From the NCBI GenBank assembly GCA_017447165.1, contig JAFSOD010000004.1, positions 653,903 to 717,902 on the forward strand: 64,000 nt of DNA, in the 5' to 3' direction. Every line of letters begins with the position of its first letter. Position 1 is the first letter of the stretch. Position numbers and translations under genes: made by a program. Origin of the DNA: Bacilli bacterium (lineage in GTDB: Bacteria; Bacillota_I; Bacilli_A; RFN20; CAG-826). Below the pieces are notes generated by a model. That model had not been told where the DNA came from and did no database searches. It worked only from the letters and a program-made list of their open reading frames with translations. Positions 20,309 to 52,739 of this stretch are shown here, piece by piece.

Positions 20309-21907
20309 ATGAAAAAACTAAGACGTTTATTTACTTCTGGATTTCTGTTTACGGCGATATTTCTACTATTAGAAATTTTAATTGTCGTCTTCTTCGAGCT
20401 AGGTCTCGATACATATATCTTTGCCGAGATTATTTCTAGAAGACCAGAAGCATTAAATGTTCTTGTTATCATTAACCGAATCTTTAGTTGGACTAGAATT
20501 GCAGCATTTGCAATAGCAATAATTATCTTCTTTAGAGTTATTAACAAATTTGAAGATCCAGAGTTTAAAATCCCTTGGTTAGTGTTCTTATTCGTTTTCC
20601 CTGTTGCCTCTGTGGTGTTCTTCTTGATTTTTAAGAACCACGGGCTACCAAGAAAAGAAACTAAATACATCAGGGGTTTTTTAAATGAATTAGAGCCATA
20701 TTATGAAAAATACCGTTTAGAGTTTACTAAGTTAGAAGATGAACTTGGTAGGGCTAAAGGGGCGTTTGAATATATTTTAAATACCGCAAGAGTGGGTGCT
20801 TTTAAAAATAATAGAGTTACTTATTATCGAGTGGGAGATGATTTCTTCCCTGATTTAATTGAAGGATTAAAGAAAGCTAAAAAGTTTATCTTTATCGAAT
20901 TCTTTATTATTACTGATGGCAAACTCTGGAGTGAAGTTAAGGATATCCTTATTCAAAAAGCCCAAGAAGGTGTAAAAATTAAAATTGTTTATGATGATTT
21001 AGGAAGCAATGGCACCATTTCCAGTAGAACTCCAAAAAGATTAGCGAAGTACGGCATTAAATGCTGTAAGTTCCATCCACTTAGACCAATCTTATCTGGT
21101 GTTTACAATAACCGTGACCATAGAAAGATAGTGGTCATTGACCATCAAATGGCGTTCACTGGAGGGAACAACCTCGCTGATGAATACGCTAATATCATCA
21201 CCAGATTTGGACCCTGGAAAGATACAATGGTGAAGATTGAAGGAACAGCAATCTCTAATTTAATTACTACCTTTATTGAAAACTTTGATATCGCTAGTAA
21301 AGAAATAACACCTTTGTCACCTTATTTAGATTTCGATTATCCAGTATTTAATGATGAAGGTTTTGTCGCTCCATTTGGGGATGGTCCTGGATTCTACACT
21401 AATGATCACTTAATTGGTGAACAAAATTATATCAACATCATTAATTACGCGACTAAGAAAGTATATATTTCTACTCCATACTTAATTCCTACTTACCGCT
21501 TAATGGAAGCAATGAGAAATGCGGCGTTACGAGGAGTAGATGTGCATTTAATTGTTCCAGGAATTCCAGATAAAAAACTTGTTTATAAAGTTGCAAAATC
21601 ACACTTTAAAGTATTGTTAAAAGCTGGTGTCCATATTTATACATATACTCCTGGATTTAACCATATGAAGACCGCTTTGGCGGACGATGAATTAGGTTTT
21701 GTGGGTACGATTAACTTCGACTTTAGAAGTTTAGTCCATCACTTTGAATGTGGGGCTTTGTTATATAAGAACCCATGCATCAAAGAAATTAGTAATGATT
21801 TTAAAGATATGATTAATAAATCAGAGTTAGTCCCAGTTGATTTCAAACTCGGAATTGTTTCTAGATCTATATGTGGATTAATTAAAATAATTACTCCGCT
21901 ATTATAA
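20309..21907 (+). CDS. cls: cardiolipin synthase (PLD superfamily)
   Basis: 532 aa. Two N-terminal TM helices and two HKD motifs (HRKIVVIDH....GGNN and HMKTALADDELGFVGTINFD). Confidence 0.85.
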   Translation: MKKLRRLFTSGFLFTAIFLLLEILIVVFFELGLDTYIFAEIISRRPEALNVLVIINRIFSWTRIAAFAIAIIIFFRVINKFEDPEFKIPWLVFLFVFPVASVVFFLIFKNHGLPRKETKYIRGFLNELEPYYEKYRLEFTKLEDELGRAKGAFEYILNTARVGAFKNNRVTYYRVGDDFFPDLIEGLKKAKKFIFIEFFIITDGKLWSEVKDILIQKAQEGVKIKIVYDDLGSNGTISSRTPKRLAKYGIKCCKFHPLRPILSGVYNNRDHRKIVVIDHQMAFTGGNNLADEYANIITRFGPWKDTMVKIEGTAISNLITTFIENFDIASKEITPLSPYLDFDYPVFNDEGFVAPFGDGPGFYTNDHLIGEQNYINIINYATKKVYISTPYLIPTYRLMEAMRNAALRGVDVHLIVPGIPDKKLVYKVAKSHFKVLLKAGVHIYTYTPGFNHMKTALADDELGFVGTINFDFRSLVHHFECGALLYKNPCIKEISNDFKDMINKSELVPVDFKLGIVSRSICGLIKIITPLL

Positions 21908-37550: not shown

Positions 37551-37625
37551 TGGCTGGGGTACTTGGGATCGAACCAAGGAATGTCGGAGTCAGAGGCCGA
37601 TGCCTTACCGCTTGGCTATACCCCA
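37551..37625 (-). tRNA. tRNA-Gln (anticodon CUG)
   Basis: Reverse complement TGGGGTATAGCCAAGCGGTAAGGCATCGGCCTCTGACTCCGACATTCCTTGGTTCGATCCCAAGTACCCCAGCCA aligns with bacterial tRNA-Gln. Anticodon loop CUCUGAC. Encoded CCA. Positions 31-39 form a C·U mismatch. Confidence 0.8.
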
Positions 37626-43277: not shown

Positions 43278-43367
43278 TGGTGCCCGGGACCGGAATCGAA
43301 CCGGTACGGTTTATACAACCGCAAGATTTTAAGTCTTGTGCGTCTACCTGTTCCGCCACCTGGGCGC
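43278..43367 (-). tRNA. tRNA-Leu (anticodon UAA), long variable arm
   Basis: Reverse complement GCGCCCAGGTGGCGGAACAGGTAGACGCACAAGACTTAAAATCTTG...GGTTCGATTCCGGTCCCGGGCACCA. Anticodon loop CUUAAAA. CCA encoded. Confidence 0.85.
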
Positions 43368-43374
43368 TTAGAAT

Positions 43375-43450
43375 TGGTGACTCGCCGGAGATTCGAACTC
43401 CGGACCCCTTGATTAAAAGTCAAGTGCTCTACCGGCTGAGCTAGCGAGTC
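43375..43450 (-). tRNA. tRNA-Lys (anticodon UUU)
   Basis: Reverse complement GACTCGCTAGCTCAGCCGGTAGAGCACTTGACTTTTAATCAAGGGGTCCGGAGTTCGAATCTCCGGCGAGTCACCA. Confidence 0.9.
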
Positions 43451-43455
43451 AACAT

Positions 43456-43531
43456 TGGCTGGGGTGGGTGGGATCGAACCACCGAGATGACAGAGTCAAA
43501 GTCTGTTGCCTTACCTCTTGGCTACACCCCA
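43456..43531 (-). tRNA. tRNA-Gln (anticodon UUG)
   Basis: Reverse complement TGGGGTGTAGCCAAGAGGTAAGGCAACAGACTTTGACTCTGTCATCTCGGTGGTTCGATCCCACCCACCCCAGCCA. Confidence 0.9.
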
Positions 43532-43536
43532 ACTTG

Positions 43537-43620
43537 TGGTGGAGGGGGGCAGATTCGAACCGCCGAACCCGAAGGAGCTGATTTACAGTCAGCCGCGTTT
43601 AGCCTCTTCGCTACCCCTCC
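43537..43620 (-). tRNA. tRNA-Tyr (anticodon GUA)
   Basis: Reverse complement GGAGGGGTAGCGAAGAGGCTAAACGCGGCTGACTGTAAATCAGCTCCTTCGGGTTCGGCGGTTCGAATCTGCCCCCCTCCACCA. Long variable arm. Confidence 0.9.
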
Positions 43621-43644
43621 GTGTATGGTATAGCTTCGCGTTAA

Positions 43645-43720
43645 TGGTGGATGCTGAGGGGCTCGAACCCCCGACCTCCGCCGTGTAAAGGCGATGCTCT
43701 CCCAGCTGAGCTAAGCATCC
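43645..43720 (-). tRNA. tRNA-Val (anticodon UAC)
   Basis: Reverse complement GGATGCTTAGCTCAGCTGGGAGAGCATCGCCTTTACACGGCGGAGGTCGGGGGTTCGAGCCCCTCAGCATCCACCA. Confidence 0.9.
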
Positions 43721-49924: not shown

Positions 49925-49932
49925 CATAAGAA

Positions 49933-49966
49933 AAGCGCAGGATTTGAATCGCCTGCGCTTTTACTT
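49933..49966. terminator. bidirectional intrinsic terminator between pepF and the RhuM-PLD gene
   Basis: AAGCGCAGG-atttgaatc-GCCTGCGCTT, 9-bp GC-rich stem. TTTT follows on the + strand and AAAA precedes it. Confidence 0.7.
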
Positions 49967-49969
49967 TAG

Positions 49970-51181
49970 CTAATTGAGGCTAGATAATATTGCTTCAACA
50001 AGTTCTTTAGTTTCTATTTTTATAATCCCAAATGTCTTATTTCCAGCATAATTTAAAGATGAACCAATTGAGTAACACTCTTTATCATCAAGTATGATAA
50101 AACGATCATGGAAATCATTATTATTGATTACTGTGATTTTTCCATATTGGACGATAAATTTATTAATTTCTTTAATTGATAAAGTCGAAAAGCGAGATTT
50201 ATAAATTATTCTGTCAACTATAGGAGATACTTTTTTCAAAAAAATTAAGCTTTGATAATCAAAATATGGATCGATAATTATTATTTTATTATTCGCTTTA
50301 GAAACAATTGAAGATATTAATTCATAAGCATCGAACACTTCTCCTTTGAAAACGATTTTCTCTTTTATATAAGAATTATCTTTTACGATGTTTTCAATTT
50401 TATTTTTTAAACTATAAATTTCATTTTCAAGTCTGAGGAAATTATCTGCAGTAACCAGCGCTCGACTTTCATTGATCGAATATCCTTTGATCATATATTC
50501 TTTCAATACATTGGATACCCATTTTCTAAATTCTATTGCCCGTTTTCCTTTGATACGATATCCAATTGCCAAAATCATATCTAGGTTATATTGTTGTACT
50601 AAATATTGCTTTCCATCTAGGGCAGTATGTAAGAAATCCTTACTAACTGAATCAGGCATTAATTCCCCTTCACTAAAGATATTATTGATATGCATTGTAA
50701 TGTTTGGCCTACTAGATTCAAATAGAGAAGCAATTTGATTTTGTGTTAACCAAACAGTGTCCTCTTTTGGATCCACACTTACATCTAAATTGATAGAACC
50801 ATTATTATAAATAATGATATTATTGTTATCTTTGATGTTTAGCGATTCTAAAACAAAAGATTCGAACTTTTTTGTAATGTCTTTATTAATTCTTAATCCT
50901 ATTGTTTTGATAACATCTAAACTATATACAGTTAATGGTTTTTTCTTCGGTAAATTAATAACCATAGATGCAATAGGTGCATTTTTTGCATTTATTGCAC
51001 TTTTGGTAGTGGCGTCAACATTGTAGGTTGACTTGATGGCCCTTCTAATTGTTGTTGCCGCAACATTGAAGAGAGCGGCTATCTCATTGGCAGATAGCCA
51101 GATAGTATTGTCTTCGACAGACACTCTTACATCAAGAGAAAGATCTCCATCTGTAAATTTGATTGTTTCAAAATTAGTCAT
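49970..51181 (-). CDS. RhuM-family protein with tandem N-terminal repeat domains and a C-terminal PLD-like (HKD-variant) domain
   Basis: 403 aa from ATG 51181, with SD GGAGGT 5 nt upstream. Two copies of the RhuM/Fic-N-like module (DNTIWLSANEIAALF and EDTVWLTQNQIASLF), then the RhuM core ILAIGYRIKGKRAIEFRKWVSNVLKEYMIKGYSIN. The C-terminal ~150 aa carries KIIIIDPYFD...FHDRFIILDDKECYSIGSSLN. This resembles the PLD HKD motif HxK(x)4D(x)6GSxN with K replaced by R and one extra residue before GS. Confidence 0.7.
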   Translation of the reverse strand: MTNFETIKFTDGDLSLDVRVSVEDNTIWLSANEIAALFNVAATTIRRAIKSTYNVDATTKSAINAKNAPIASMVINLPKKKPLTVYSLDVIKTIGLRINKDITKKFESFVLESLNIKDNNNIIIYNNGSINLDVSVDPKEDTVWLTQNQIASLFESSRPNITMHINNIFSEGELMPDSVSKDFLHTALDGKQYLVQQYNLDMILAIGYRIKGKRAIEFRKWVSNVLKEYMIKGYSINESRALVTADNFLRLENEIYSLKNKIENIVKDNSYIKEKIVFKGEVFDAYELISSIVSKANNKIIIIDPYFDYQSLIFLKKVSPIVDRIIYKSRFSTLSIKEINKFIVQYGKITVINNNDFHDRFIILDDKECYSIGSSLNYAGNKTFGIIKIETKELVEAILSSLN

Positions 51182-51380
51182 ATAGACCTCCTGTTTCTGG
51201 GGAAAATGAAAATAGAGACGATTTACTCTCAATCCTCCATCCTCATTTATTCCCTTCGAACCCAAAGGTCTCTATATCTTTTCCTCGATTATATTATAGC
51301 ATTTAATGCTATAAATGTATATCAGTATTTAATAAAAGTGCAAAAAAATACAGTACACAATTGTGTACTGTAATATACAA

Positions 51381-51465
51381 TGGTGCGCGGGATGAGAATC
51401 GAACTCACACATCTTGCGATATACGCCCCTCAAACGTACGCGTCTACCAGTTCCGCCACCTGCGC
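51381..51465 (-). tRNA. tRNA-Leu (anticodon GAG), long variable arm
   Basis: Reverse complement GCGCAGGTGGCGGAACTGGTAGACGCGTACGTTTGAGGGGCGTATATCGCAAGATGTGTGAGTTCGATTCTCATCCCGCGCACCA. Anticodon loop UUGAGGG. CCA encoded. Confidence 0.8.
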
Positions 51466-52490: not shown

Positions 52491-52739
52491 ATGTTAGCAG
52501 TTAATTATTCAACCTTGAGAAATTCATTGAAATCTTATTGTGATCACGCCACTGACAGTGAGGAAGTAGTGGTTGTAACAAGAAAAGATGAAAAGAATGT
52601 TGTTTTGATGTCTTTGAATCAATATAACGAGATGCTTAAACAGATAAACAACTCTCAGTATCTTAAACTTCTTCAAAAAGCAATTGAGCAAATTAAGAAT
52701 GGAGATGTTGTTATCAAACACCTAAATGATCTTGATTAA
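52491..52739 (+). CDS. Phd/YefM-family antitoxin-like protein (no cognate toxin gene adjacent)
   Basis: 82 aa. N-terminal VNYSTLRNSLKSYCDHA...VVVTRKDEKNVVLMSLNQYN matches the YefM/Phd fold. SD GGAGGT upstream. The 210 bp downstream encodes no toxin-sized ORF in any frame. Confidence 0.6.
   Translation: MLAVNYSTLRNSLKSYCDHATDSEEVVVVTRKDEKNVVLMSLNQYNEMLKQINNSQYLKLLQKAIEQIKNGDVVIKHLNDLD

Follow-up and report, generated by a model that had tools for sequence, protein, structure and literature searches.

Introduction

RhuM-family genes are among the commonest unexplained passengers of restriction-modification (RM) loci and defence islands, and they are without a known mechanism. The PDC candidates, of which the RhuM-type group is PDC-S05, derive from genes that lie within BREX, DISARM or type I RM systems (Payne et al., preprint 10.1101/2024.01.29.577857), and one PDC-S05 representative in E. 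coli cut the plating of T7 and T5 about 1000-fold, the architecture of that protein not being established (PMC12881386). Here we describe a gene of this family in a 64,000-nucleotide stretch of a Bacilli bacterium genome (contig JAFSOD010000004.1; the whole stretch is called the window), which lies beside tRNA-Leu(GAG) and is referred to as the RhuM-PLD gene, its product joining two RhuM-type N-terminal modules to a C-terminal domain like those of the phospholipase D (PLD) superfamily. We infer, with about an even chance of being right, that this product is a modular enzyme which targets DNA as a single protein and belongs to the RhuM/PDC-S05 group of defence candidates, its nuclease activity and its role in defence both being presumed from comparison. 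A PLD domain with a conserved His/Arg/Asp/Ser signature gives the RhuM/ORF6N subgroup a concrete testable mechanism, that of a DNA-guided PLD nuclease, and the family in question comprises thousands of clusters and is frequent in bacteria of the gut and rumen and on plasmids of Bacteroides, among them p5482 of a model strain. No new principle is involved, since BfiI, NgoAVII and SauUSI are familiar examples of a DNA-binding domain joined to a PLD nuclease.

The window protein shares with the RhuM/PDC-S05 group (PF13310) the RhuM N-terminal core, a match to the PADLOC model PDLC04879 and a single-gene organization, but it has a PLD-fold domain in place of the canonical RhuM C-terminal two-thirds and an extra hypervariable N-terminal module covered by no PADLOC model, and its gene lies outside any RM or BREX system. 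With the single-HKD PLD nucleases (Nuc, structures 1BYR and 1BYS, NucT, and the domains of BfiI, NgoAVII and SauUSI) it shares motif His, Asp, Ser and Asn residues that align, and with the last three the coupling of a PLD catalytic domain to separate DNA-recognition domains. It differs from them in an Arg for the motif Lys, an alternation of Asn and Lys at the last motif position, a hairpin longer by two residues, no identified equivalent of Glu122, and a DNA-binding partner that is N-terminal and of KilA-N/RhuM-N type, and its activity is predicted from sequence. TrmB and TrmBL2 (5BOX, 3QPH, 2F5T) also combine a winged-helix DNA-binding domain, a long helix and a PLD-like domain, a resemblance that is structural only; the window protein in contrast has an invariant motif, another type of N-terminal domain, a mobile and mosaic evolution, and no Pfam TrmB match. 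To our knowledge the PLD-like domain of TrmB lacks the HKD residues and binds sugars. Closest in composition are ORF6N proteins of about 300 aa (PDLC04869), which have the PLD-like C-domain, the helix and a DNA-binding domain of the KilA-N superfamily, with one ORF6N module as opposed to two RhuM-N modules in the window protein.

The gene and its C-terminal domain

The gene, its parts and its ribosome-binding site are as follows.
49973 to 51181, minus strand: coding sequence, 403 aa, two RhuM-N modules, helix and PLD-like domain (open reading frame list, sequence)
49973 to 50356, minus strand: PLD-superfamily domain, 128 aa (residues 276-403)
50051 to 50110, minus strand: HKD-variant motif H358-D-R360-x4-D365-x7-G373-x-S375-x-N377 (hhalign, conservation)
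50357 to 50458, minus strand: linker (residues 242-275), which with residues 238-241 forms a long helix, 238-267 (AlphaFold2)
50459 to 50830, minus strand: module 2 (residues 118-241), RhuM N-terminal core with a KilA-N/APSES-like fold
50831 to 51181, minus strand: module 1 (residues 1-117), hypervariable, KilA-N/Bro-N-like, a degenerate copy of module 2 (BLASTP, PHROG)
51187 to 51192, minus strand: Shine-Dalgarno sequence AGGAGG, 5 nt before the ATG

An earlier reading of the window, here called the original prediction, had described a single 403-aa minus-strand gene with a strong Shine-Dalgarno sequence, and this is what is present: the open reading frame is intact, begins with ATG and ends at a stop codon at 49970-49972. 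The peptide strings that it had quoted all occur where it had placed them. A longer frame initiated at TTG can be dismissed because 74 homologues begin at the same Met, M1 being invariant among them. A protein cluster (P0001) that is 100% identical to the window protein bears the name 'virulence RhuM family protein [Bacilli bacterium]', and neither the gene nor its C-domain has a paralogue elsewhere in the window.

The C-terminal domain carries the argument. An AlphaFold2 monomer model built on a 75-sequence alignment (mean pLDDT, the per-residue model confidence, 80) gave residues 276-403 as an alpha/beta domain with pLDDT of about 79-92, and in this model the domain has the phospholipase D fold, an alpha/beta sandwich. 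The original prediction of a PLD-like C-terminal domain was thus borne out as to fold, though not as to size, which it had put at about 150 aa and which is 128 aa following a 30-aa helix. Among the fold matches the highest sequence identity was with the DNase Nuc (21%), the lowest root-mean-square deviation was with the nuclease domain of SauUSI, and the top Foldseek match was TrmBL2.

Residues 358-377, HDRFIILDDKECYSIGSSLN, form the motif. For comparison, Nuc of plasmid R46 and a 26-sequence Nuc family profile were aligned by hhalign with the C-domain alignment. The Nuc family profile gave E 0.0024 over 91 columns and aligned HDRFIILDDKECYSIGSSLN to HDKVIIVDNVTVE--TGSFN, and the single R46 sequence gave an identical motif register (E ~0.002). 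In this register H358 corresponds to the catalytic His, R360 to the Lys, D365 to the Asp, S375 to the Ser and N377 to the Asn. A comparison with the HKD domains of the window's own cls gene (20309-21907), from which the original prediction had drawn its comparator HRKIVVIDHQMAFTGGNN, found the expected register at a non-significant E of 0.17.

Conservation was counted over the best 150 C-domain representatives, which are clusters at 50% identity. H358, R360, S375 and D304 are present in all 150, G373 in 149, and D359 and D365 in 147 each; at position 377, 95 have N and 54 have K (as in the SLK of the p5482 protein), and position 382 is K or R in 139. The family signature is then D304...H358-D-R360-x4-D365-x7-G-x-S375-x-[N/K]377-x2-G-x-[K/R]382. 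Held against the pattern HxK(x)4D(x)6G(S/G)xN, it has H, D, S and N that align with the Nuc family, an Arg for the Lys in 150 of 150 and an alternating N/K, making it a variant and not a canonical HKD motif; the canonical HDK was seen in one member of the 75-sequence set. The original prediction had noted the change of Lys to Arg, and had given one extra spacer residue where the difference from Nuc is two. The conservation pattern is that of an active or phosphate-binding site and not of a degenerate pseudo-PLD. The alternation at position 377 (window 50051-50053) beside an unvarying Arg is not shown by canonical HKD enzymes, and N and K here may mark two functional subtypes.

The top Foldseek match bears on another explanation, that the protein is a TrmB-like regulator or nucleoid-associated protein, with DNA-binding modules, a coiled-coil dimer and a non-catalytic PLD-like domain for sensing or oligomerization, in which a phosphorylated ligand would sit in the conserved His/Arg/Ser/Asn pocket and adjust the binding to DNA. 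This is the main rival because TrmBL2 and TrmB match the whole layout. A palindrome over the gene's own -10 box (see Further features) would suit autoregulation, PHROG and BFVD neighbours of the N-terminal modules are anti-repressors or regulators, and the Arg for Lys and the alternation at 377 fit binding as well as they fit catalysis. We nevertheless consider it unlikely. The invariant H, R and S align with catalytic residues of Nuc, whereas TrmB-type domains are not known to have the HKD residues; presence/absence polymorphism, allele replacement and mosaicism across lineages would be unusual for a housekeeping regulator; and the family is placed in PDC-S05. Membership of the TrmB family itself was rejected, there being no match to Pfam PF01978 or PF11495 at E<=1.

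N-terminal modules and linker helix

The N-terminal 241 residues make up two DNA-binding modules. Residues 1-117 and 118-241 are 29% identical over 96 aa by internal BLASTP (E 2e-9), and both repeat a beta3-alpha2-beta2-alpha2 pattern in the AlphaFold2 model, in keeping with the two DNA-binding modules that had been predicted. Module 1 matches the anti-repressor Ant in PHROGs (E 4e-9), and the BFVD structural neighbours of the modules are KilA, BRO and antirepressor proteins; because of these matches the modules are assigned by fold and sequence similarity to the KilA-N/Bro-N/APSES type of DNA-binding domain. A Pfam scan of the window protein found RhuM alone (PF13310, E 3.8e-22, 79.2 bits against a gathering cut-off of 33.7), with residues 178-241 on positions 1-67 of the 252-position profile. 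Because the match stops at position 67 and does not extend over the full profile, the canonical C-terminal two-thirds (positions 68-252) are absent, as the original prediction of a RhuM core without its usual C-terminus had it.

Between the modules and the PLD domain, helix 238-267 has a heptad spacing of L251/I255/L258/I262/I265, read from the sequence. TrmBL2 is laid out in the same way, and on that analogy the helix is a putative coiled-coil dimerization element.

Family size, architectures and catalogue status

The full-length architecture occurs in more than 120 clusters at 37-100% identity. The family to which the C-domain belongs is much larger and is visible only by exhaustive search: a word-indexed search with the C-domain alone returned 13 matches, as opposed to 6,496 representatives at E<=1e-3 (2,670 at E<=1e-10) in an exhaustive profile search. 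Among the best 150 of the 6,496, 46 had two RhuM-N modules (401-455 aa), 19 had one, 42 had an ORF6N domain (mostly about 300 aa) and 43 were short proteins or fragments, so RhuM-N and ORF6N were the only N-terminal domains detected in this sample.

That the only N-terminal partners detected for the PLD-like domain in the best 150 are DNA-binding, KilA-N-type domains points to a DNA substrate. It speaks against the explanation that the protein is an abortive-infection toxin, or an enzyme acting on some non-DNA phosphodiester such as RNA, a nucleotide second messenger, phospholipid or polyphosphate, with the DNA-binding modules serving only as sensor or autoinhibitor. The PLD superfamily does include lipid hydrolases and synthases, the RNA nuclease Zucchini, the PLD3/4 exonucleases and PPK, the gene is solitary and without an immunity partner, and the copies on Bacteroides plasmids recur beside Fic family genes, which are often toxins. 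Among the fold matches, however, it is the DNase Nuc that has the highest identity and the SauUSI nuclease domain that has the lowest deviation, and no transmembrane or lipid-binding segment is predicted in the window protein, and we regard this explanation as very unlikely.

The sequence family is already catalogued. PDLC04879, the PDC-S05 model of RhuM-N plus the C-domain (285 positions), matches residues 118-400 at E 3.5e-94 and the p5482 protein at E 5e-133, which agrees with the earlier view of the gene as a defence candidate and places the window protein in that group. PDLC04869 is ORF6N plus the C-domain and matches an ORF6N relative (P0168) at E 2e-126 and the window C-domain at E 1e-34; among 5,027 PADLOC models the C-domain alone matches only these two. 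PLD-bearing members are labelled "RhuM family protein" in RefSeq. With both PADLOC models, the RefSeq family and a copy on p5482 in existence, the suggestion in the original prediction that the gene was possibly novel was overstated. What does appear to be new is the recognition of an HxR-type PLD domain in a large RhuM/ORF6N subgroup, the mapping of the residues of that domain onto Nuc, and the documentation of allele mosaicism in a conserved chromosomal slot (below). No paper was found in the literature that describes the PLD-like domain or links RhuM, KilA-N or ORF6N with PLD, and none on the residue mapping or the slot mosaicism.

One-module versions are found on many plasmids of Bacteroides, Phocaeicola and Parabacteroides, including p5482 of B. 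thetaiotaomicron VPI-5482, and on a few gut "Bacteriophage sp." contigs; neighbours on the Bacteroides plasmids include ParA and resolvase genes. The C-domain had no PHROG match and is therefore not a common phage protein domain. On the three plasmids inspected (p5482, pBUN1 and a B. fragilis plasmid; loci L094-L096) the one-module gene lies no more than 1-2 kb from Fic family genes in 3 of 3, and a small hypothetical open reading frame ends just before its start; on the B. fragilis plasmid genes for a helicase and an exonuclease come immediately after it. In locus L006, too, a RelB/Fic pair is near the homologue. The gene may have a functional link with Fic, or a small protein partner.

The slot at tRNA-Leu(GAG) and its alleles

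The borders of the locus are defined by four features.
49931 to 49962, no strand assigned: GC-rich hairpin with 11-nt arms, 100% complementary, left border of the variable segment
49964 to 51379, no strand assigned: variable segment of 1,416 bp with the RhuM-PLD gene (blastn break-points)
51349 to 51372: terminator of tRNA-Leu(GAG), hairpin and T-run (terminator scan)
51381 to 51465, minus strand: tRNA-Leu(GAG), its 3' end the right border of the variable segment (ARAGORN; Rfam 43.6 bits)

The gene is downstream of the tRNA, 199 bp from its 3' end, and stops 8 bp before the hairpin, which it has in common with the convergent pepF and which may be read as a bidirectional terminator; a position between a terminator and the tRNA 3' end had been predicted. 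Other neighbours are gpmI, pduL, a TSCPD gene and metK. Relatives were compared through pepF-anchored loci from species-representative genomes, namely rumen and gut metagenome-assembled genomes (MAGs) labelled Bacilli, Bacillales or Erysipelotrichaceae. In one of these, UBA3835, the slot is empty: blastn homology ends at window position 49963 and resumes at 51380, and the 449 bp between hold no open reading frame of at least 70 aa. In two more distant relatives (L029, L019) pepF is followed directly by tRNA-Leu(GAG). Because of the empty site in UBA3835 and the inferred ancestral state of the slot, the gene is considered acquired DNA, and GC content is 26-29% inside it against about 31-38% in nearby flanks. 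The slot is a small variable hotspot at a tRNA 3' end and the gene is acquired, mobile cargo. Thus the earlier view of a tRNA-proximal slot of acquired DNA held as regards the variability, the empty relative and the GC dip; a classical tRNA-integrated island was rejected, since no att-type direct repeats of the tRNA 3' end surround the gene and no integrase is present.

Two other relatives with the same pepF/tRNA-Leu neighbourhood have no RhuM-PLD gene. One (L012, 12167-12903) has a DUF1778 antitoxin with a GNAT toxin and a membrane protein, and the other (L014, 6863-7132) has a DUF1778 antitoxin alone and a 179-aa membrane protein. The contents differ, and the neighbourhood therefore collects various small accessory modules.

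Five relatives have divergent alleles of the same gene in the slot, with protein identities to the window of 80% (L009), 73% (L008), 54% (L011), 51% (L004) and 47% (L088), while the flanking GpmI, PepF, PduL and MetK of close relatives are 90-98% identical and the small TSCPD protein 90-91%. Because divergent alleles occupy the slot, the gene seems to have resided there for a long time, with turnover of its alleles, and not to have been inserted recently. The divergence is distributed unevenly. Between L008 and the window the PLD-coding part is 91-96% identical in DNA and module 1 falls to 48%; at 50915-51064, within module 1, nucleotide identity to close relatives drops to 37-49% (80% for L009). 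Averaged over the 74 homologues, identity amounts to 31% in module 1, 62% in module 2 and 45% in the PLD domain. In L008 and L009, the two closest alleles, the synonymous divergence (dS) is 0.24-0.33 in the PLD part, below that of pepF (0.63-0.77), which is below that of module 2 (1.4-1.5), and because these values differ, parts of the gene must have moved between lineages at different times. The ratio of nonsynonymous to synonymous divergence (dN/dS) is 0.08-0.34 for L008, L009 and most interpretable comparisons with L011; the most divergent alleles, for which several dS values are saturated, give higher ratios, reaching 0.59 in module 1. Judged from these rates, the alleles are mosaic yet under purifying selection, and mosaic alleles in one conserved slot amount to a natural experiment on the exchange of specificity modules. 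An artefactual frame or pseudogene was rejected, all 5 of 5 syntenic alleles being intact and dN/dS low in the interpretable comparisons with closer alleles.

This mobility could also be explained if the gene were a mobile-element accessory that rides as selfish cargo in the tRNA slot, for instance an anti-repressor of plasmid or phage origin, a factor for exclusion or maintenance, or a nuclease of homing type that furthers its own spread. Consistent with this are the one-module versions beside ParA, resolvase and Fic genes on Bacteroides plasmids and on phage-labelled contigs, the resemblance of the N-terminal modules to phage Ant, KilA and BRO proteins, and a dS of the PLD part below that of the flanks, which indicates recent horizontal exchange. 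It would not account for the absence from the locus of an integrase, att repeat or other element gene, for the lack of a PHROG match to the C-domain, or for the observation that the same chromosomal slot is kept, under purifying selection, across species with a pepF dS of ~0.7. On these grounds it is quite unlikely.

Proposed mechanism and the link to defence

A modular DNA-targeting enzyme could work as follows. The protein would dimerize through its helix and PLD domains and thereby bring two half-sites together in a single active site, as happens in Nuc and BfiI, with H358 as the nucleophile and R360 standing in for the usual Lys as a phosphate clamp. The KilA-N modules, above all the swappable module 1, would pick the nucleic-acid target or sense the invader, and metal-independent cutting of foreign DNA would then let a single gene protect against phages or plasmids. 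Since the gene is accompanied by neither a methylase nor an immunity partner, the protein would resemble a type IV-like or a BfiI-like restriction enzyme.

The link to defence is drawn from the PDC-S05 placement, the protective PDC-S05 representative, the behaviour of the locus and a weak similarity to the VPA1262/'Juno' family, which has been reported as anti-phage (preprint 10.64898/2026.08.01.741415). Residues 351-396 fall on positions 416-469 of the Juno profile (NCBIfam NF040700) at E 4.4e-12, a weak local match around the HDR motif. Membership of that family was rejected, the score being 45.5 bits against a cut-off of 80 over ~55 of 478 profile positions; Juno proteins are also much larger and Gram-negative.

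Several findings weigh against the reading of the protein as a DNA-targeting defence enzyme. No other defence gene adjoins it and at this locus it is not part of any RM or BREX system, and in the other genomes sampled the RhuM-PLD gene is likewise mostly solitary. The window protein has no Pfam PLDc or PLDc_2 match at E<=1 (the isolated C-domains of 14 of 33 relatives do match PLDc_2 at this threshold, best E 1.5e-6, the gathering score of that model being 27 bits), and Protein Data Bank sequence searches with the protein and with a C-domain profile gave nothing useful, for which reason the PLD link needed fold comparison and profile-profile alignment. The Arg for Lys is universal in the best 150, and we know of no characterized HxR PLD enzyme. 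The hairpin has a D-x9-S spacing, two residues longer than in Nuc, and the equivalent of Nuc Glu122 was not identified, the conserved K/R382 being roughly at its place.

A broader form of the enzyme reading is more speculative and on balance improbable. It is that HxR-type PLD domains coupled to KilA-N-type modules, the only coupling in the sample, constitute a large unrecognized class of one-protein restriction systems, in which specificity or sensing would lie in the swappable N-module, Arg would replace Lys in the chemistry, and self DNA would be spared without a methylase through dependence on modification, as in type IV enzymes, or through activation by infection.

Further features

One expression signal remains to be listed.
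51293 to 51321, minus strand: promoter-like TATACA-17-TATAAT with TG extension, putative (consensus scan, 10 of 12 matches)

A perfect 10-bp palindrome, TTATAGCATT-A-AATGCTATAA, at 51294-51314 on the minus strand overlaps the predicted TATAAT (-10 box) of the RhuM-PLD gene. It is a candidate operator and could serve autoregulation by the gene's own DNA-binding modules. About 150 bp around it are weakly conserved among the alleles (59-69%). An Rfam scan of 44-56 kb found tRNA only.

An orphan antitoxin of Phd/YefM type (82 aa, PF02604, E 2.3e-12) is encoded at 52491-52739 on the plus strand between the TSCPD gene and metK, with no toxin open reading frame downstream. The intergenic gap between TSCPD and metK is 558 bp in the window and 186 bp in L001 and L008, and the Phd/YefM gene therefore looks like a second small insertion nearby. 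In L019 (JBGUMU010000088.1, 11268-11585) PepF is 67% identical to that of the window and a partial PduL at the contig end is 96% identical, a mismatch which suggests that the MAG contig is chimeric or that the pduL region was transferred recently. Besides a separate tRNA-Gln at 37551-37625 on the minus strand there is a cluster of five tRNA genes (Val, Tyr, Gln, Lys, Leu) at 43278-43720 on the same strand; this cluster keeps its position in every close relative and serves well as a synteny anchor.

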